From Candidatus Moraniibacteriota bacterium (lineage in GTDB: Bacteria > Patescibacteriota > Minisyncoccia > Moranbacterales > UBA1568): 64,000 nt of DNA. The position numbers were made by a program, and so were the translations under genes. The stretch is taken from the NCBI GenBank assembly GCA_037201605.1, contig JBBCGM010000001.1:67310-131309 (forward strand). The letters run 5' to 3'. This document shows, piece by piece, positions 10,291 through 63,502 of the stretch. Each line of letters begins with the position of its first letter. The stretch's first letter is position 1. The notes beneath the pieces were generated by a model that ran no database searches, was not told where the DNA came from, and saw only the letters and a program-made list of their open reading frames with translations.

Positions 10291-11340
10291 CTATTTGTCA
10301 GCAACAAGATCGTAAATAACGTTTTCGTCGTAATTAGGGTAATAGAGCATGAGTAAACGCTTGGCGTCTTCTCGTGTCATTTTATCGTCTCTCACTTCTT
10401 GAGCGAGACTCTTGGCTTCTTTCTCGAACTCCTTGTCAAGCTCATCATCATCGGACTTTCCTCGATTGGCGATGGTGCTGTAAGTGTTCTCGATATCCGC
10501 TTCTAAGGCTTTCAATTCAAGCTGAGACTTTCGCTTGGCGTCTGATACCAGAGACTTATTTTCTTTAGCAATCGCTGCCTCAAGCTGTTTGGTATTCATG
10601 GTTCCGCCCTTGCTTGTCTTGGTAGAAATGCCGAGTTCGCGGGCCGTAGCCTTCAACTCTTTGCTGTAAGCATCGTCAGCGGCCTTCTTAGCCTCTTCTT
10701 TCTCTTTCTTCTTTTGCTTCTCGTTGTATTTGTTGATTTTGGTCAGTGCGATTTCCGGCGTGTCGGTCAATGTAATGCCGGCGCCCGGAGCAGTTGCCAT
10801 GTAATCGAGCAGTCGTTCCCGCTCAGTAGTAGCCACCTGGTAGCGACGATCAGCTGCTTCTTTCTTGGAAAGATATGCATCCCGAAAAGTATCTGCTTTA
10901 GCGGCGAATCCTTGACGCTCAGCGCTGCGGAGACGAGCTTGGCTTGCTTGCTGGCCGGTGATGACTGGCATAGCTATCGTTTGGTCTTCCAGGAAGTTTT
11001 GTTGCTCAAGGCTCCCCTGATCGTAATTTCTGAGGAAAGCAATGGCATCCAGATATTCCTTCTGAGCCGAGTCCACGCCTTCAGAGGCATAGATTGAAGA
11101 CTGTAGTCCGTACGGATCGGACAGGTTGGGCGGAGCTGTCGGATTAGCGAGAGCGTTCTGCATGTTTCCAGCAGAATAAGGGTTCCCAGTCGAACGGAAA
11201 GCTGTGAGGATGGGCTGGAAGTCCTGCTCATCGACATTGACACCTTTTAACAAGCCTCCCTTTCCTTTGGCCCGTTCGGTCTCGATAAATTCAGGCGTGA
11301 CACCTTGACCGATTAAATCTGTTTCGTATTGTGTTGCCAT
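10291..11340 (-). CDS. phage virion protein
   Basis: 349 aa; tight packing inside the structural operon. Confidence 0.4.
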   Translation of the reverse strand: MATQYETDLIGQGVTPEFIETERAKGKGGLLKGVNVDEQDFQPILTAFRSTGNPYSAGNMQNALANPTAPPNLSDPYGLQSSIYASEGVDSAQKEYLDAIAFLRNYDQGSLEQQNFLEDQTIAMPVITGQQASQARLRSAERQGFAAKADTFRDAYLSKKEAADRRYQVATTERERLLDYMATAPGAGITLTDTPEIALTKINKYNEKQKKKEKEEAKKAADDAYSKELKATARELGISTKTSKGGTMNTKQLEAAIAKENKSLVSDAKRKSQLELKALEADIENTYSTIANRGKSDDDELDKEFEKEAKSLAQEVRDDKMTREDAKRLLMLYYPNYDENVIYDLVADK

Positions 11341-24457: not shown

Positions 24458-25300
24458 TTAAAAATTACCGTAATTACATTGGAAGCATTGCAAACCAAGG
24501 TCCCGCCATAGCTTGACCACCTGGTCTCGATCGTCGAATACGCAGTCCACATGATATTTTCCCCTGACATACTGATCGAACAATTCATTTTTCACGATGT
24601 AGTCCTTTCGCATATCTCCCTCTTGACGCATATACAAGTGTGTTGATTCAAAGAGTTTCAAATCAGGGAAATGTTCCGTAATCCATGTAGCCGTTTGATT
24701 GGCGCACACACTGTCTCGGCCGCTAAGAAAGATAAGGTGCTTACCCCTAGCGACTGTCGTAACGACATCAATAACCTTTTTAATCGGCTCATCCCCTCCA
24801 ACCTTTGCCCAGTCATAGGGACTCCGGTGTCTCCCTTCAGATATTGTCCCGTCAATATCACAAATCACCGCCCTAGGGAGATGCTCAGGATTATCATACT
24901 TCTGCGGAACAGAATACTGATTTGCCATACCACGAATCACTGCCTCGCCTACAGGATTAAGTCGCTTAGCGTCCCTTTCGATGCATTCCTCAATCGAGGT
25001 ATCGAATTCTTTTACTTCAACGAGAGACCCGTTCGCCTTAGCTATTTCCCGAAGGGTCTTCTCGTGCACGGGATTGAAGTTGGTGTCGTCGCAGATGATA
25101 TTCACTCTCTCCTGGAGAGCTAGACGAACAATGAAATCTCGTACCTTGAGAAGAAATTTCTCATTGGACTTTGTATGAACGCTGTTATCCAACATGGCCC
25201 GTAAGTCGTCCTTGTTGACCCTTTTGTATCCTTTCTGCTCCCTGGCCCAGGTTGTTTTGCCTGATCCCGGCAGTCCCTTGAGAATAATTAGCTTTGCCAT
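24458..25300 (-). CDS. pseT: polynucleotide kinase/3'-phosphatase, T4 PseT-like
   Basis: N-terminal P-loop ILKGLPGSGKTTWARE; C-terminal HAD motifs VICDIDGT ... LSGR ... FDDRDQVV; looks collinear with T4 Pnk along its length. Confidence 0.85.
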   Translation of the reverse strand: MAKLIILKGLPGSGKTTWAREQKGYKRVNKDDLRAMLDNSVHTKSNEKFLLKVRDFIVRLALQERVNIICDDTNFNPVHEKTLREIAKANGSLVEVKEFDTSIEECIERDAKRLNPVGEAVIRGMANQYSVPQKYDNPEHLPRAVICDIDGTISEGRHRSPYDWAKVGGDEPIKKVIDVVTTVARGKHLIFLSGRDSVCANQTATWITEHFPDLKLFESTHLYMRQEGDMRKDYIVKNELFDQYVRGKYHVDCVFDDRDQVVKLWRDLGLQCFQCNYGNF

Positions 25301-25301
25301 A

Positions 25302-25925
25302 TTAGTATTTGAGTAAGAGTAATCCGTCCTTCTCCATAGGTATTTGCTCGGTCATGGTGGTGTAATTAAACGGCTTAGTGATGATGTGCCAGCCGTTCTT
25401 TGTGGGGTATTGTTTAACGATCTGATCCGATACGCCGCTCTCTTCGAATATTGCAAGAGCTCTATCGAGAGTCAGCGGATTATCCACGTCGAATTTGAAG
25501 AATGTTTCTCCACGACTAGACGGCCGCATCATTGCCGAACTCATGCGACTCTTAATACCGAGGAAGAAATAGAGCCATGACTCGTAGTCAGCATCGTCGT
25601 TATCGAGGAGATCGTGCTTGAATTGCCTAACAGCCTTTTTCATGTCCCGGCAGTTGACCGTACTGTAAATCCGGAGTCCCTCAATGGAAGACCGGGACCG
25701 ATCCTCAAGAAGGCAACCAAGCGCTTCTTCGAATTCTTTCTTTCCATTGGTGAAGAACATCCGTAAGTGTCGTGAAGCATGACTCGCCCCGTCTTTGGAG
25801 CGATGGATAAGCATAATCACGCGAACGCCTTCCACGAACTCTGGAAAGTATTCCACGATACATTTTGCTTCATTCTGAGCATCGACTGTGTAGGCGATCG
25901 GTTTCTTTTCTCTGGTGTGTCCCAT
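25302..25925 (-). CDS. hypothetical protein inside the RNA-repair cassette
   Basis: 207 aa, no motif recognised with confidence (weak 2H-phosphoesterase-like HRS and HIIT elements); stop is 1 nt from the pnkp start. Confidence 0.4.
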   Translation of the reverse strand: MGHTREKKPIAYTVDAQNEAKCIVEYFPEFVEGVRVIMLIHRSKDGASHASRHLRMFFTNGKKEFEEALGCLLEDRSRSSIEGLRIYSTVNCRDMKKAVRQFKHDLLDNDDADYESWLYFFLGIKSRMSSAMMRPSSRGETFFKFDVDNPLTLDRALAIFEESGVSDQIVKQYPTKNGWHIITKPFNYTTMTEQIPMEKDGLLLLKY

Positions 25926-25926
25926 A

Positions 25927-26166
25927 TCAGTTGGCGCTTTCTAGGTCTTCAGTTCCTGCGTCCAGGAGCTTTGTCTCCCGTTCGAGGAAGCGGAAACTTT
26001 TGAGCTTGTAGGACTCGAAGGCAAACAATGTTTCTTTGCGAAGCACAATACCCTCCTCAGGCACTTGCGCGGCGCACATGAAGCAGTCCTTTTCGGTGTA
26101 TTTCTTCTCTAATTTCTTTATAAATTCCTCATGCCAGTGATTTTCGGGATCAATCTCAGGGAACAA
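25927..26166 (-). CDS. small ORF overlapping the RNA ligase 3' end (possible frame-shifted C-terminal extension of the ligase)
   Basis: 49-nt overlap with 26118..27209 in a different frame. Confidence 0.3.
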   Translation of the reverse strand: MFPEIDPENHWHEEFIKKLEKKYTEKDCFMCAAQVPEEGIVLRKETLFAFESYKLKSFRFLERETKLLDAGTEDLESAN

Positions 26167-27209
26167 ATCCTTGGCTTTCCAGAAAAGAAAAGATGGACGT
26201 ACTCTAAACCGAAGCGCTCGCAGAATTCCTTGATCTGGTGAGAGGAGAGATCTAGTACATTGCCGTCTGCATTCGTGACAGTGATCCTGTAGACCTGGAT
26301 GCGCTTAGTTCCTTGAGTACAGCCGTAGTCGTAGCCAACCTGAATAGGAGCGCCGTCCTTGGTATATCCGAGAATCTCGCCGTATATGGTATAGCCCTTC
26401 GGGAGAAATTCGCGGAGTTCGTTTTTGGCCTCTTCCCAAAGATCGTAATTGTAGAAATGCGCTTTTTGAGCAGTTTCGAATTCATTCTTGACAACGCGGC
26501 GGGAACCATAAACATAGTCGTACTCGGTTTCCTGGATAGGCAAGAGCTTCCTAAGAAATTTCAGGAAGATATTCAGCTTCTTCTTTACCAATACATGCGC
26601 CACCCAAAAGGACGTACCGTGCGTTTTGTAACTAATAGAAATATGGTCTTCCGGCTTGATCAGAAAAGCGTTCCTGCGAAGTTGCTCAGTATCGACATGA
26701 AGGCGCACCTGGCCCTCAACAAGGCGAGAAATACGGGGCTTCTGGCCCATACGCAGTGCTCGTGGCTCACGAGCCTGAATCACGTATTTTTTGCAGAGCA
26801 ATATCTTTCCGACAGTGTCGAATTCACACCCGACATAGTCTATGAGACTCTCACCAACAAACGCCTCTACAGTACTGAGGGGAGCAAGATATCCCATTGA
26901 TTTTTGTCCGCGAAGCTTTACGGCCCGGACGCGACCGTTCTTGTCAAAATACCCTTTTACCGTTGTGTCTTTGTTGAGAAGCTGAGAACTGAAAGAGTCG
27001 GTCTCCTTTAGGAATTCGTAATTGATCTGGCACTCCAGAGGAAAGAAAACATAGAGATCTCCAATCTTGGCATCCTGGCCGGTAATAACGTCCTGGAAAT
27101 CCACAGTCGCTACCTGAAGACGATCTGCGTTATCGTGCTTGCGAAGAGCTTTAAGCTCTACAATTTTTGCTAAGTAATTGGGATTCGCGTCTTGAGAAGT
27201 AGAGATCAT
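26118..27209 (-). CDS. ATP-dependent RNA ligase (Rnl2/DraRnl-like) with N-terminal extension
   Basis: motif I YKTHGTSF (compare T4 Rnl2 KIHGTN) at about residue 195; same operon as Pnkp. Confidence 0.6.
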   Translation of the reverse strand: MISTSQDANPNYLAKIVELKALRKHDNADRLQVATVDFQDVITGQDAKIGDLYVFFPLECQINYEFLKETDSFSSQLLNKDTTVKGYFDKNGRVRAVKLRGQKSMGYLAPLSTVEAFVGESLIDYVGCEFDTVGKILLCKKYVIQAREPRALRMGQKPRISRLVEGQVRLHVDTEQLRRNAFLIKPEDHISISYKTHGTSFWVAHVLVKKKLNIFLKFLRKLLPIQETEYDYVYGSRRVVKNEFETAQKAHFYNYDLWEEAKNELREFLPKGYTIYGEILGYTKDGAPIQVGYDYGCTQGTKRIQVYRITVTNADGNVLDLSSHQIKEFCERFGLEYVHLFFSGKPRICSLRLIPKITGMRNL

Positions 27210-31958: not shown

Positions 31959-32299
31959 GCTGCGTCATTTGCACTGGCCGCCAAAGATACTCTTTTACAG
32001 TGTGTGCATTCCAGGGAATATCTATCTCCTGTCGGATGACTTTACGCATGTCAAAGCGCAGCTTCATTGAGAGCATCGGCTACGAGTTGGAGATAGACGT
32101 GTAAAGCTTTATTTTGCTGAGATGTCCGTGTGCGTTGTACTGGTTTCACCTCGAGTTCAACATCTTTCCCCTCAAACTTCGCCAAGGGCAGCATGTCCTC
32201 CTTAGAGAAAGGTTGGAATTTCCCCCCAACAATGCGGCCGCGAATATTCATAGGTTTTCTATTTTTACCTCCCAACGATTCTTTTCGTTTTTCAACCAA
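31798..32299 (-). CDS. ninB: NinB-like recombination protein (split over two overlapping ORFs)
   Basis: QRTRTSQQNKALHVYLQLVADAL matches the lambda NinB RSLDQNRKLWACLGDV motif. C-terminal ORF carries STKDLNTGEIDKIYETLNRHLNERTGV, matching STSRMRVGEFAELLELIQAFGTERGV. Confidence 0.55.
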
Positions 32300-32577
32300 C
32301 CATGCAGAACAACGATCCAGCCGGCTCTTCTCAGGATCGGGTAGTATGGAGACCCGAAGATCTTTGTACGCCGCGCCGGCACCCCCTTAATAGAGGTTGT
32401 TTGTACACCGACCGTTTCTCCGTCTTTTACACAAACAATGTCAATGATGCCGAAGAGATCTTGCCGGATTCTTGCAAAAGGATTCCAATGTTCGACTACC
32501 TGGCAGTGGTAGCCGGCCTTTCTCATGTAATCGAGACTTCTTTTTGTCGGAGTGACTTTTTTAGTTGTTGTTGCCAT
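32248..32577 (-). CDS. small nuclease-like protein (PD-(D/E)xK, VRR-NUC or Hjc-like resolvase candidate)
   Basis: QDLFGIIDIVCVKDGETVGVQTTS segment; next to NinB, as in lambdoid nin regions. Confidence 0.3.
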   Translation of the reverse strand: MATTTKKVTPTKRSLDYMRKAGYHCQVVEHWNPFARIRQDLFGIIDIVCVKDGETVGVQTTSIKGVPARRTKIFGSPYYPILRRAGWIVVLHGWLKNEKNRWEVKIENL

Positions 32578-32591
32578 TTCTTTTTTTGTGT

Positions 32592-32668
32592 GGATCCGCC
32601 CGGAATCGAACCGGGTTCTCAGGGTTGCACGTTGGCCTTTACCCTGATCGAAGCCAATTCAGACCCAG
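32592..32668 (-). tRNA. lone tRNA 3' fragment (T-arm CCCGG-TTCGATT-CCGGG plus acceptor 3' strand CGGATCC-A) with no complementary 5' acceptor strand nearby
   Basis: manual reverse complement; preceded by an atypical 6-bp stem with a 15-nt loop; directly upstream of the 32577 ORF. Confidence 0.4.
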
Positions 32669-32675
32669 GAACTTC

Positions 32676-32810
32676 TTTTTAGAGATTGATAGGGAAGACT
32701 CACGCTTGTTGACAACGTCGTTATGAGAGGTTGCCCTTGCCGCTTTTTATTTCCGGTGTATACCCCAGAGAGTCTTCGGACGTACAAGCTCCCCTATCAA
32801 TCTCTAAAAT
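32676..32810 (-). ncRNA. structured non-coding element: perfect 18-19 bp inverted repeat enclosing about 97 nt
   Basis: ttttagagattgataggg (32677-32694) and ccctatcaatctctaaaa (32792-32809). Confidence 0.35.
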
Positions 32811-32823
32811 TGAAATGAACTTA

Positions 32824-32892
32824 GGGGGACGCTCTAGCCACTGAGCTATAGGAGCCGAAGCTCCTAGTCGGATTCGAACCGACGACCTCCCC
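32824..32892 (-). tRNA. circularly permuted tRNA-like unit P2: 3' half (GGGGA-GGTC-GTCGG-TTCGAAT-CCGAC-TAGGAGC), TTCG, then 5' half (GCTCCTA-TA-GCTC-AGTGGCTA-GAGC-G-TCCCC)
   Basis: acceptor 7/7 and anticodon stem 5/5 complementary between halves; canonical D-arm and T-loop; halves in reversed order with UUCG closing the acceptor stem. Confidence 0.45.
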
Positions 32893-32962
32893 GTGGGCTT
32901 GCTCAACTACTGAGCTACACAGCCCGAGAGCTGTGATGGGATTTGCACCCACGTCCTCGCCC
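32893..32962 (-). tRNA. circularly permuted tRNA-like unit P1, degenerate: 3' half (GGGCG-AGGAC-GTGGG-TGCAAAT-CCCAT-CACAGCT), CTCG, then 5' half (GGCTGTG-TA-GCTC-AGTAGTT-GAGC-A-AGCCC)
   Basis: acceptor 7/7 with one G-U; anticodon stem 4/5; non-canonical D loop (no GG) and T loop (TGCAAAT). Confidence 0.35.
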
Positions 32963-33559
32963 CCCTTAAATTCACTTCTGAAATGAACTAGTGGTGGCTG
33001 TTCTTACGATTTCTCAGTGTAATTAGCACCGATAGTCGTATGGAGATTTCCTAGCCTCAGAAATCCGTTCCCATTTCCATCCGCATAAGCATCAGGGGGG
33101 GTACGAGCAGCCAAGCCATCACTAGATCACTTCCTGAAATATCCGAGAGTGAGGAGGCAGGATTCTTGCTGAGAGCTTTTGACCCCGCAACAGACTATCC
33201 GGGCAACTGTTTCCTGCGACCTGCGAGAGCTTTTGGATATGGGATGTTACTTGCATTTACCTCCATATTTCTGACCTAGCCCGACTTCCCCGTCTCGATT
33301 GCAAGCGACTCCTCACTCTCGGATACCTCCTTATAAAACCTCTTTCTCTTCTTTAAACCTGACATCGAATTCTCTCAATGCTTCATCAGCCCAACGCGCT
33401 CCACCAAATTTACTCGTGCTATTTGATGCCTGAACGTAAGCAACATATACCTGTATCCATAAATCCTCTCTTCTTGCTTGATGTTCTGTTTCTCATAAAC
33501 GCTTTTAATGAGTTACTTCTTTTCGGCTTAGGCCTATAAAGACCCAAGACCGGAAAGAA

Positions 33560-34166
33560 CTAAAACGGGACGTCTTCGATCCGAATATCATCCTCATCAT
33601 CGAGATTGATAGTAGGGATCTCTTCATCCGGAACATGAGCAGAGGGAGCTTTGGCTGGCTGCTCAAAAGAAGCTTCCTTCTTTTCCTTCACAGTCGCCTT
33701 CTCCCTTTGCTTCGTCCGAGAGCGGATCTGCTTTGGATTTAGCCGGCATGAAGGAGTCAATGTTCGAGAAAACCTTCCCCTCTTTACCTTCCTTGTTCTT
33801 CACCACTACGCGGCACTGGTAGCCGATAAGCTTATTGATGAAGTCCGATCCGAACATGGCTTCCTCCTCCTGGGTCAGCTCACGCTTGATAATGGCCTCA
33901 GTGATCTCATAGAGAGCGTTCTTGCCATTCTTTCCGATATAGAGGAAGGTTGGGACGAAATTGCGCCAAATTGAGCGGCCGCGGAATTCGCCATCGTCAA
34001 GAACAACGAACTGGAATGAGAGGACATTCTCCATCACGCTTTTGTCGTTGTACGAAGGCTTCTCCTGCATTTCGATATCCAGGAGTTCTACCTGATACAC
34101 GTCTTCTGGCAATGGGTCGAAGGTCTTACCTTCTTTGACTGGGAAACTGATGTTGCTTGGTAGCAT
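33560..34166 (-). CDS. phage ssDNA-binding-type protein with SSB-like acidic C-terminal tail (two ORFs joined by a frame break)
   Basis: C-terminus NLDDEDDIRIEDVPF resembles the SSB DDDIPF tail; ORFs 33663..34166 and 33560..33760 overlap. Confidence 0.4.
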
Positions 34167-37242: not shown

Positions 37243-38244
37243 GGCGAATGAAAGAGCGGTAGCGGGGCTACCGCATCAACCTTGCTTTTCACCACCTGCT
37301 TACGGGAGAGCAGATCAGTTGCAATGACTTTGGCGCGCTTGGCCGTTTTCGGACGCTCTCCGGAGAGGACAAGTTCGCTGTCTTCCTTTCGATAGCGGGC
37401 GAGAAGTGTCGCACTGGGACGGCGCTTATTGAATGTGACGAAATCGATGCGTTCGCCTCCCAAGAAGCGATTAATCTCGGCTACATAATCCCAAAGTGCA
37501 AACCCATCCGTGTGCCCCCGCTTGTTCACGAGGTTACAATTGTAGACTACTGTAGCTCGCGAGCGTCGGATAGCTTCCGGAATGCCTGGCACCAAGAGAT
37601 TGGGGCAGAATGCTGCAATAATGATTGCCGGGCCCGATGACAATCAAATCGGCCTCGCGGATCTTCTGCAGGGCATTCGGATTGGCTACCGGTTTTGGCT
37701 CCAGGAAAGTGCGGCGGATACCCGTGCGGCCAAGCCTCTTATCGGTATTAATAGCATGTTCACCGCGCAGCTTAGTACCATTTTTGAGCGTCACGCAGAG
37801 CTCCGTATCCGAACTCGTCACCGGCAGCACTTCGCCGCGGACGTTCAGAAGAGTGGCAGCCTCATGCACGGCTGAAAGAAAATCACCTGTGATCTTTTCA
37901 AGAGCGGAAAGCAAGAGGTTGCCGAAACTGTGGCCGGAGAGGCCGCCATGCTCAAATCGGTATGTCATGAGATCGCGAAGCGTTTCCGAGGAATCGGAAA
38001 GGGCTACCAGGCACTGGCGCACGTCACCCGGAGGCAGAACGCCCAGCTCGTCGCGCAAGATGCCGGTACTGCCGCCATCGTCTGCCATAGAGACAATAGC
38101 CGAGAGCTCGGACTGGATACTGCTTGAGGCCCGAAAGAGCGTAAAGCTGCCTGTCCCGCCGCCGATAGTAACAATCTTTTTCATCAGTCGGAGCGCTGGG
38201 AATCGAACCCAGACTAGATGGTCCCAAACCACCCGTACTACCAC
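37239..38244 (-). CDS. yvcK: YvcK/CofD-family protein (gluconeogenesis-factor-like), split in two
   Basis: KKIVTIGGGTGSFTLFRA ... IVSMADDGGSTGILRDELGVLPPGDVRQCLVALS; C-half ADLIVIGPG ... LLVPGIPEAI in the second ORF. Confidence 0.6.
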
Positions 38245-38258
38245 TATACGACGCTCCG
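38188..38258 (-). tRNA. tRNA-Pro (anticodon UGG, G37)
   Basis: manual fold: acceptor CGGAGCG/CGCTCCG, anticodon arm GGTGG-TTTGGGA-CCATC, T-arm CTGGG-TTCGATT-CCCAG. Confidence 0.7.
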
Positions 38259-62800: not shown

Positions 62801-62874
62801 GTCCTTGTAGCTCAGGTGGATAGAGCGTTTGGTTGCGGTCCAAGAGGTCGCAGGTTCGATTCCTGCCAAGGACA
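62801..62874 (+). tRNA. tRNA-Arg (anticodon reads GCG)
   Basis: GTCCTTG acceptor, D-arm GCTC-AGGTGGATA-GAGC, anticodon loop TTGCGGT, T-arm GCAGG-TTCGATT-CCTGC. Confidence 0.65.
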
Positions 62875-63502
62875 CCTATGAAAAAAGCCCCTGTCTTTGT
62901 GGCAGGGGCTTTCGCGTTCTTCAATGAGAGTAAAGGCCGGGCAGCACCGTTTTTTGGGCAGCCCAGATTGGAGGATCCCGGGGTTCATCGAGAGACACAA
63001 TCCAGCCGCGGTAAAGGTAAAGGAAGGGCGGCTCCGACACTTCTTGCAGGCCAGCGAAGAGAATGAGCCTCGGTGTCCAAGAGAGTCTTGAGCGCCTGAG
63101 CTTGCGTGTAGAGACGCCATCCCCTGGTCCCGATATTTACGACGCATATTGTCCCCGAGAGGCGGCTCTTCCCCATCAGCGCAAGAGACGAAGGAGGTGA
63201 GCATGTTGCACTCCTCCATACGTAAACGGAAAAGTGTGTACAAGTGTTGGAGATGCGGATCGCTGATATAGCCAAGAATATTCTGGCCGTAGAACTCTTG
63301 CTCGGGTTCTATGATGGCAAGCCCGCCTCGCTCCAGAAACCGGGATTTGGTGAACAGCCAGCGCGAAAAATCTTTCGACATGTTGTCCTCCCTGGTAAAG
63401 AACCACTATTGCTTCCATCATGCCCCTAAGCGAAACAAGCGTCATGATTGAAAAAATCGGGTATTTTCGCTAGGATAAGGAGCGTTTCAGCTTTCAGAAT
63501 TC

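Follow-up and report, generated by a model that had tools for sequence, protein, structure and literature searches.

The 64,000-nucleotide (nt) stretch analysed here (positions 67,310 to 131,309 of contig JBBCGM010000001.1, assembly GCA_037201605.1; hereafter the window) derives from Candidatus Moraniibacteriota bacterium and contains a prophage with a ~1-kb stretch free of open reading frames (ORFs), located between an SSB-like gene and a 109-aa ORF. This stretch contains five abutting structured RNAs (S1-S5) encoded on the minus strand and co-oriented with the flanking genes. The third of these, S3, is one structured non-coding RNA, in which a terminal stem opens to a three-way junction with two tRNA-shaped domains. 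The design of the domains is already known, as each S3 unit is the tRNA-mimic module of bacterial YrlA (Y RNA-like A), here tandem-duplicated on a single stem; apparently new are the fusion of two such modules into a dimer and the missing linked Ro60 gene. The components of S3 are given below in transcript order and tRNA numbering, with letters as read on the minus strand.

32812..32978, minus strand: S3, whole element, one RNA of ~167 nt, in which a terminal stem carries two permuted tRNA-like units that abut
32967..32978, minus strand: 5' strand of the terminal stem, GAAGUGAAUUUA; a bulged A (32966) and a run of G (32965-32960) come next
32962..32895, minus strand: unit 1, GGGCG-AGGAC-GTGGG-TGCAAAT-CCCAT-CACAGCT-CTCG-GGCTGTG-TA-GCTC-AGTAGTT-GAGC-A-AGCCC
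32962-58, minus strand: unit 1, anticodon-stem strand 39-43, GGGCG, followed by the variable loop AGGAC
32952-32936, minus strand: unit 1, T arm with loop UGCAAAU
32935-32918, minus strand: unit 1, acceptor hairpin CACAGCU-CUCG-GGCUGUG, followed by U8 and A9
32915-32901, minus strand: unit 1, D arm with loop AGUAGUU, followed by A26
32899-95, minus strand: unit 1, anticodon-stem strand 27-31, AGCCC
32893..32894, minus strand: inter-unit linker of 2 nt (AC), between the 27-31 strand of unit 1 and the 39-43 strand of unit 2
32892..32825, minus strand: unit 2, GGGGA-GGTC-GTCGG-TTCGAAT-CCGAC-TAGGAGC-TTCG-GCTCCTA-TA-GCTC-AGTGGCTA-GAGC-G-TCCCC
32892-88, minus strand: unit 2, anticodon-stem strand 39-43, GGGGA, followed by the variable loop GGUC
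32883-32867, minus strand: unit 2, T arm GUCGG-UUCGAAU-CCGAC, canonical
32866-32849, minus strand: unit 2, acceptor hairpin UAGGAGC-UUCG-GCUCCUA, followed by U8 and A9
32846-32831, minus strand: unit 2, D arm GCUC-AGUGGCUA-GAGC, canonical, followed by G26
32829-25, minus strand: unit 2, anticodon-stem strand 27-31, UCCCC
32812..32823, minus strand: terminal stem, 3' strand, UAAGUUCAUUUC, which includes one copy of an 11-nt repeat

Both units share the same order of elements, namely the anticodon-stem 3' strand, variable loop, T arm, a tetraloop-capped acceptor hairpin of 7 bp, D arm and the anticodon-stem 5' strand. Unit 2 is completely paired in its acceptor stem (7/7, cap UUCG) and anticodon stem (5/5, GGGGA/UCCCC) and contains the full set of canonical tertiary nucleotides. 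Unit 1 is paired at 7/7 positions of the acceptor stem (cap CUCG) and at 4/5 positions of the anticodon stem and has a deviant elbow, with U55 of the T loop replaced by G and a D loop without GG. A first-pass annotation of this DNA had described the same permuted anatomy, and the minus-strand sequence bears out its description of both units, including the pairing counts and the deviant D and T loops of unit 1. Its proposal that the molecule is open in the anticodon loop did not hold, as the anticodon stems enter a junction that is closed by a 12-bp terminal stem. Positions 32978-32967 pair with 32823-32812 at 12/12 positions (G.U pairs counted), which extends to 17-19 bp if the adjoining G/C runs pair as well. 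S3 contains zero anticodon-loop nucleotides; the outer anticodon strands run into the terminal stem and the inner ones meet at the 2-nt linker, leaving 17 nt between the end of the unit 1 D stem and the start of the unit 2 T stem. The S3 domains are thus tRNA bodies without an anticodon loop and without a free CCA end.

The 196-nt region containing S3 has a minimum free energy (MFE) z-score of -5.84, and none of 200 shuffled sequences folded as well. As the first-pass annotation had predicted, the units are missed by standard scans, with ARAGORN calling no tRNA at 32800-33000 and Rfam returning no match over S3 at gathering score. Below that threshold, the Rfam YrlA model matched unit 2 with 33.9 bits (E = 2.5e-5 in a 1.1-kb search). 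Furthermore, a covariance model of a single unit, in which only the T, acceptor and D stems were specified (R1), gave 81.7 bits to unit 2 and 56.3 bits to unit 1, and a model rebuilt without the units of the window (R2) gave 77.1 bits (E about 7e-27) and 42.5 bits (E about 5e-14), respectively. Units 2 and 1 were the top two R2 matches of the whole 64-kb window, searched on both strands with filters off. Scores of the unit models below about 47 bits require a check for the closed hairpin; at 62839-62922 (plus strand), the T arm of a host tRNA-Arg together with a downstream hairpin represents a false positive of 32-34 bits. Ordinary tandem tRNA genes were considered and rejected, as ARAGORN was blank and no anticodon arm is present. 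The Rfam tRNA model partially matched (23.6 bits) the segment from the D arm of unit 1 across the junction to the T arm of unit 2 (D1-junction-T2), in which 11 nt occupy the place of the anticodon arm. This segment was rejected as a normal-order tRNA, since its acceptor strands GGCUGUG and UAGGAGC are not complementary. No promoter was found by a sigma-70 scan of 32200-33800.

Relatives were gathered by pattern scans of viral and metagenome contigs, and dimers were counted under strict structural criteria with ARAGORN masking. These contigs contain 11 distinct abutting dimers, and the distance from the end of the first D stem to the start of the second T stem is 17-19 nt in all 11. The closest relatives are L134, L142 (identical to L315), L309, L126, L122 and L265, and more distant ones include L333, L290, L261, L123, L124 (identical to L127 and L139), L128 and L146. 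S3 shares 74-76% identity with L134 and L309 over ~150 nt. Terminal stems of 17-23 bp, which differ in sequence, were identified in the window, L134, L142, L126, L122 and L309. The acceptor hairpins of the relatives vary from 3 to 9 bp, and the acceptor caps across the family are stable tetraloops (UUCG, GCAA, GGAA, GAAA). Genes near the closest dimers encode terminase, portal, primase, ERF and D5-helicase proteins, and the dimer family is found in unrelated phage contexts. GenBank phages contained no match to the element by megablast or distant blastn. When 185,579 species genomes were searched for the junction pattern, 22 loci were obtained, nearly all of them ordinary tRNAs by the unit model, and only L251 approached a true module. 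With the neighbouring SSB/DUF669 protein as an anchor, no viral relatives were recovered; the neighbouring DUF7666 protein led to 80 loci, none of which contained the RNA module or similarity to the array, and had no match among PDB sequences. For the fused dimer without linked Ro60, neither an Rfam family nor a report in the searchable literature was found. This tandem-fused arrangement, so far confined to viral and metagenome contigs, appears to be undescribed.

The pattern scans also yielded unusual arrangements. In L136 (8433-8645), a module is nested at the anticodon position of a normal-order tRNA-like unit, and the dimers of L146 (12168-12384) and L261 (13777-13986) are located within tRNA gene arrays and lack a long outer stem. 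The D1-junction-T2 segments of L309 (1007-1073), L126 (13728-13795) and L333 (901-957) score 32-37.5 bits with the Rfam tRNA model, above its gathering score of 29, and because of such scores the dimers could be annotated as odd tRNAs or pseudo-tRNAs.

As whole-dimer MAFFT alignments mis-register the variable acceptor hairpins, they were replaced by anchor-based parsing in tRNA numbering, which covered 24 units, and by a model-based alignment. Among the 24 units, the T stems are paired in 120/120 cells with 10 different strands, the five basal pairs of the acceptor stems in 99/105 cells with 19 different strands and the anticodon stems in 105/120 cells with 13 different strands, the latter including GUUCG/CGAAC, GGCCA/UGGCC, GGUAG/CUACC and GUUGG/CCAAC. 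The observed pairing counts were matched by 0/2000 partner shuffles. In the alignment of 29 modules obtained with the model, pairing reaches 98.0% of cells, compared with 73.8% after shuffling and ~43% after sliding of the partners; double-sided changes number 108, versus 31 expected. Acceptor covariation extends to all seven pairs of this alignment, the D stem (GCUC/GAGC) is invariant, and U8, A14, U54, U55, C56 and A58 are present without exception (29/29 modules). The 15:48 pair also covaries (G:C in 22, A:U in 6 and A:A in one module). The compensatory stem changes that the first-pass annotation had suggested as a check are found in homologues, and the frequent G.U pairs identify the minus strand, as read here, as the transcribed one. 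Since the T, acceptor and anticodon stems and the tertiary 15:48 pair covary, the units are, as judged from sequence variation, selected L-shaped RNA domains and not scars or pseudogenes.

YrlA RNAs are circularly permuted tRNAs with a closed acceptor stem (PMC4201824; 10.1101/312249), in which a stem encloses the T arm, a closed acceptor-like stem-loop and the D arm, and positions 15 and 48 covary (PMC4201824). The S3 unit contains the T arm, closed acceptor-like stem-loop and D arm in the same order within a stem, and shares with YrlA (RF02553; PMC4201824; 10.1101/312249) the anticodon-type stem, the variable region, the D arm sequence UAGCUCA...GAGC, the tRNA tertiary nucleotides and the 15:48 covariation, with unit 2 of the window being fully canonical and unit 1 deviating. 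YrlA, too, is encoded by phages, in addition to bacteria, and several copies per locus can occur. Further hallmarks of YrlA are binding by Rsr/Ro60 and modification by TruB and DusA. The Rfam model of the family matches every unit of every relative, with alignments restricted to the core of the model (~23-86 of 114) and scores of 33-44 bits in the dimers, below the gathering score of 69 in the relatives as in the window. Dimer elements are invisible to tRNA scanners and lie under the Rfam YrlA threshold. As a positive control, the unit model gave 72.8 bits to the single module of L331, which precedes a co-oriented TROVE-domain gene by 43 nt. In contrast to YrlA, which has one module per RNA, the dimers fuse two modules 17-19 nt apart on one terminal stem, and S3 has neither a nearby TROVE/Ro60 gene nor the GNCGAAN0-1G motif.

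YrlA is partly defined by its location next to rsr and by the GNCGAAN0-1G motif. A TROVE/Ro60 (rsr) gene within ~4 kb on the same strand was used as one criterion for membership. No TROVE domain was identified by Pfam in the large ORFs of the window or by tblastn over the whole window, and none was found at the dimer loci (0/11) in the contig sequence examined, which comprises 1-14 kb only at several of them; at least 7 of the 11 dimers have at least 1.8 kb of sequence on the usual rsr side. Conversely, TROVE lies 14-976 nt away at nine loci in which the modules are single or spaced, and Ro60-anchored loci contain one or two spaced modules upstream of the TROVE gene. Because the dimers lack TROVE and single or spaced modules have it close by, the fused dimer appears to be a YrlA-module variant without linkage to Ro60. 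The Ro60 motif (CGAA) is absent from the 5' strand of the window element (GAAGUGAAUUUAAGGGG), which reads UUUAAG. Relatives carry YGAAG, and CGAA occurs just in L122 and L290, where it is mostly base-paired.

The other RNAs of the array and the RNA-repair genes of the same phage are located as follows (TLD, tRNA-like domain; tmRNA, transfer-messenger RNA).

33136..33329, minus strand: S1, stem-closed structured RNA, z -4.02, with inverted repeat I2 and a 21-bp terminal stem ending in ...AUUUC
32980..33133, minus strand: S2, stem-closed structured RNA, z -3.54, with the terminal stem GGAAGUGAUCUAGUG... / ...CACUAGUUCAUUUC, homologous to that of S3
32677..32809, minus strand: S4, stem-closed structured RNA, z -6.23, with a 21-bp stem and inverted repeat I1
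32588..32666, minus strand: S5, TLD-only mini-tmRNA-like RNA, Rfam tmRNA 40.4 bits (gathering score 47)
26118-27209, minus strand: RNA ligase, phrog_968 2.4e-54
24458-25300, minus strand: Pnkp, HAD_PNKP 1.6e-49
24458..27209, minus strand: operon of the RNA ligase, a phrog_14949 ORF and Pnkp, 5.4 kb downstream of S3, context only

S3 is flanked by other stem-closed RNAs at distances of 1-3 nt, and the terminal stems of S1-S3 open with GRARGU and close with AUUUC. For S1, S2 and S4, neither a match in Rfam nor a homologue among the fetched loci was found. The 11-nt direct repeat TGAAATGAACT reported by the first-pass annotation exists, with one copy at 32811-32821 as stated there, and its second copy lies at 32979-32989 rather than at 32969-32979, 10 nt from the position given. 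In both S2 and S3, a repeat copy forms the 3' strand of the terminal stem (32989-32979 in S2), and the 5' strands are similar too. A comparable arrangement was observed in L142, where a second stem-closed RNA (11015-11223, minus strand; z -4.9) has a 23-bp terminal stem. The sequence of this stem is nearly the same as that of the dimer in the same phage, paralleling S2 and S3. The shared stem sequences in S2/S3 and L142 point to a common processing or protein-binding site and argue against a target-site duplication.

S5, 146 nt downstream of S3, has a tmRNA-type acceptor stem with G3.U70, a tmRNA D-loop analogue and a T arm. The mRNA-like domain (~308 nt) is replaced by 15 nt in S5 and by 15-16 nt across S5-type elements, further examples of which occur in L354 (6941-7023, 65.7 bits) and L353 (6763-6845, 54.2 bits), both above the tmRNA threshold, and in L359. 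A 'TLD only' tmRNA of mycobacteriophage DS6A has been proposed to titrate SmpB (PMC4131195). In the repair operon, which confirms the earlier assignment of Pnkp and RNA ligase to the same phage, the middle ORF (phrog_14949) encodes an uncharacterised protein of 207 aa. Neither Pnkp nor RNA ligase was detected by tblastn at the related dimer loci in the contig sequence examined.

S3 is probably a duplicated YrlA-type non-coding RNA that is excised from a longer transcript and presents two tRNA bodies as a decoy, titrator or tether. Its place in an array of five RNAs co-oriented with the flanking genes suggests that S3 is cut from a longer transcript, for which the ~20-bp terminal stems could serve as sites of processing or of protein binding. 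The RNA would be neither decoded, aminoacylated nor repaired into a tRNA. Instead, it might offer its pair of tRNA elbows, together with the invariant stems of the D and T arms, to host proteins that recognise tRNA shape, and proteins bound in this way could be held or titrated, much as the TLD-only tmRNA mimic next to S3 is proposed to titrate SmpB. For YrlA, an unknown factor has been proposed to read the conserved D and T stems (10.1101/312249). The partner of S3 would not be a phage-encoded Ro60, and candidates include a tRNA-targeting defence or toxin protein, a tRNA-processing or -modifying enzyme and host Ro60. The first-pass annotation had listed an anticodon-nuclease decoy among its alternatives; a decoy as such stays viable, and one that works through the anticodon loop does not, as no loop is present. 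The DS6A TLD-only tmRNA is a precedent for a phage-encoded, truncated mimic of tRNA shape that lacks the functional 'business end' and is proposed to titrate a host protein (PMC4131195). Unlike S3, it is a member of another RNA family, has alanine identity and an acceptor stem that is open, and follows the normal 5'-to-3' order.

The doubled module, the strong structural selection and the lack of a nearby Ro60 gene suggest a Ro60-independent activity of the module, and the family provides a clean handle for pull-downs. Located beside a TLD-only tmRNA mimic in a phage with tRNA-repair enzymes, S3 is a candidate RNA-level device for host manipulation. A further, more tentative possibility is that the tandem permuted tRNA mimic represents a Ro60-independent, phage-specific RNA class, whose two rigidly spaced bodies capture a dimeric or two-site tRNA-recognising host factor as an anti-defence or host-takeover decoy. 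Candidate targets are a tRNA-cleaving anti-phage nuclease or toxin and the adjacent tRNA sites of the ribosome. If two-site capture were true, it would reveal the long-sought factor that reads the D and T stems of YrlA.

Several points weigh against the interpretation of S3 as a selected decoy with two tRNA bodies. Unit 1 of the window, with its degenerate elbow (U55 to G, no GG), may be decaying. An alternative fold is possible in the subfamily of the window, in which, as in the predicted MFE structures, the 5' GGGGGC pairs with the 3' GCCCCC; this G/C-run pairing lengthens the terminal stem at the cost of both anticodon stems. The three-way junction, with each unit on its own anticodon stem, is backed by the distant dimers L333, L261, L128 and L146, and for the window subfamily both folds stay possible. 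In addition, the shuffle and Fisher statistics (the latter 6e-7 for the 15:48 pair) ignore phylogeny. A role as protein-binding tRNA decoy or titrator is the likeliest for S3 by analogy only. Finally, a host-encoded or highly divergent Ro60 is possible, as exemplified by a Listeria phage Rsr-like protein that was found by HHpred only (PMC12282133), and distant partner genes would be missed where only 1-14 kb of contig was examined.

Binding to host Ro60 is the main rival explanation. Accordingly, S3 would be a genuine Ro60-bound Y RNA, whose terminal stem binds a host (or very divergent phage) Ro60/Rsr and whose domains serve to tether PNPase or other effectors, as RYPER complexes do. This is rather unlikely, yet consistent with the Y-RNA design of a terminal stem plus effector module (10.1101/312249), with the mismatch or bulge conserved 6-7 bp below the junction, with the resemblance of the YGAAG motif of the relatives to GNCGAAN0-1G / CGAA, and with neighbouring RNAs that have the same terminal-stem sequence, like Y-RNA paralogues. 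Furthermore, host PNPase can be co-opted by phage Y RNA-like RNAs (PMC12135203). The Yrl1 and Yrl2 RNAs of Thermus phage phiLo resemble S3 in being Y RNA-like, encoded by a phage and closed by a stem between the 5' and 3' ends, and they have been proposed to capture host RNA-metabolism proteins during infection, similar to the role suggested here (PMC12135203). In contrast to S3, they are located directly upstream of a phage Ro60 gene and have the CGAA motif in an internal bulge, and the text of that paper mentions no tRNA-like domain (PMC12135203). Against Ro60 binding, TROVE is absent from the window and from the contig sequence examined at every dimer locus, compared with its presence within 1 kb of single modules; Rfam YrlA never aligns at the Ro60-binding ends of the model, and the window reads UUUAAG in place of the motif. 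Moreover, Ro60 is encoded by just about 5% of bacteria (PMC4201824), and the long stem is absent from the dimers within tRNA gene arrays (L146, L261). It is improbable that S3 is mere processing punctuation without a function of its own, with tRNA-like bodies that recruit RNase P/RNase Z and long stems that recruit RNase III. [quoted passage not shown] RNase P cleavage is possible at the 7-bp acceptor stems of the window. However, the acceptor hairpins of relatives vary from 3 to 9 bp and have stabilising tetraloop caps, so cleavage by RNase P is not a conserved property and cannot be the conserved function. In addition, completeness of both units, invariance of the D stem, covariation at 15:48 and a fixed spacing of 17-19 nt would not be required for punctuation. 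Recognition by RNase P is also known for tRNA-shaped elements in longer non-coding transcripts of the mascRNA/MALAT1 type, which, unlike S3, are eukaryotic single units with normal strand order that act as 3'-end processing signals.

The first-pass annotation had raised the hypothesis that tRNAs are encoded here as split or permuted genes and that the phage Pnkp and RNA ligase join or repair the halves to give functional tRNAs. The 3' half does precede the 5' half and both enzymes are encoded within the same prophage, but this explanation is now very hard to sustain. With neither an anticodon nor its loop, outer anticodon strands that continue as the terminal stem and a 2-nt linker between the inner ones, ligation into a tRNA is not supported, and the acceptor caps are stable tetraloops on hairpins of 3-9 bp. 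The suggested link to repair enzymes does not extend to the related dimer loci, which lack Pnkp and RNA ligase in the contig sequence examined, and the module's canonical relatives, the YrlA RNAs, are non-coding. The bulge-helix-bulge (BHB) splicing endonuclease is archaeal and eukaryal and implausible in a bacterial prophage. The permuted tRNA genes of Cyanidioschyzon merolae and some archaea share with S3 the leading 3' half and the linkage of acceptor ends by a short intervening sequence, and are processed via a circular intermediate and the BHB splicing machinery to real tRNAs with anticodon loop and CCA (PMC3978253). S3 differs in its bacterial phage setting and in the lack of an anticodon and anticodon loop. 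Least probable of all is an origin as a tRNA-derived attachment-site (att) scar, as tandem tRNA pseudogenes or as a small mobile insertion with an 11-bp target-site duplication, which the first-pass annotation had also raised. The direct repeat is real and a tRNA-Pro is located about 5 kb away at the likely prophage boundary. However, each repeat copy forms the 3' strand of a terminal stem, one in S2 and one in S3, with similar 5' strands, and the many compensatory changes and G.U pairs indicate strand-specific selection at the RNA level. Moreover, ARAGORN calls no tRNA at S3, and the dimer family recurs across unrelated phage contexts.

The region at 37534-38258 likely represents the boundary between prophage and host. 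It contains a CofD/YvcK-like ORF (37534-38258), which covers positions 1-193 of the 290-position profile only and overlaps the tRNA-Pro gene (38187-38258). Past this boundary, the window encodes host-type genes, including RNase Y, iPGM, trigger factor, NusA and a PilB-type ATPase.

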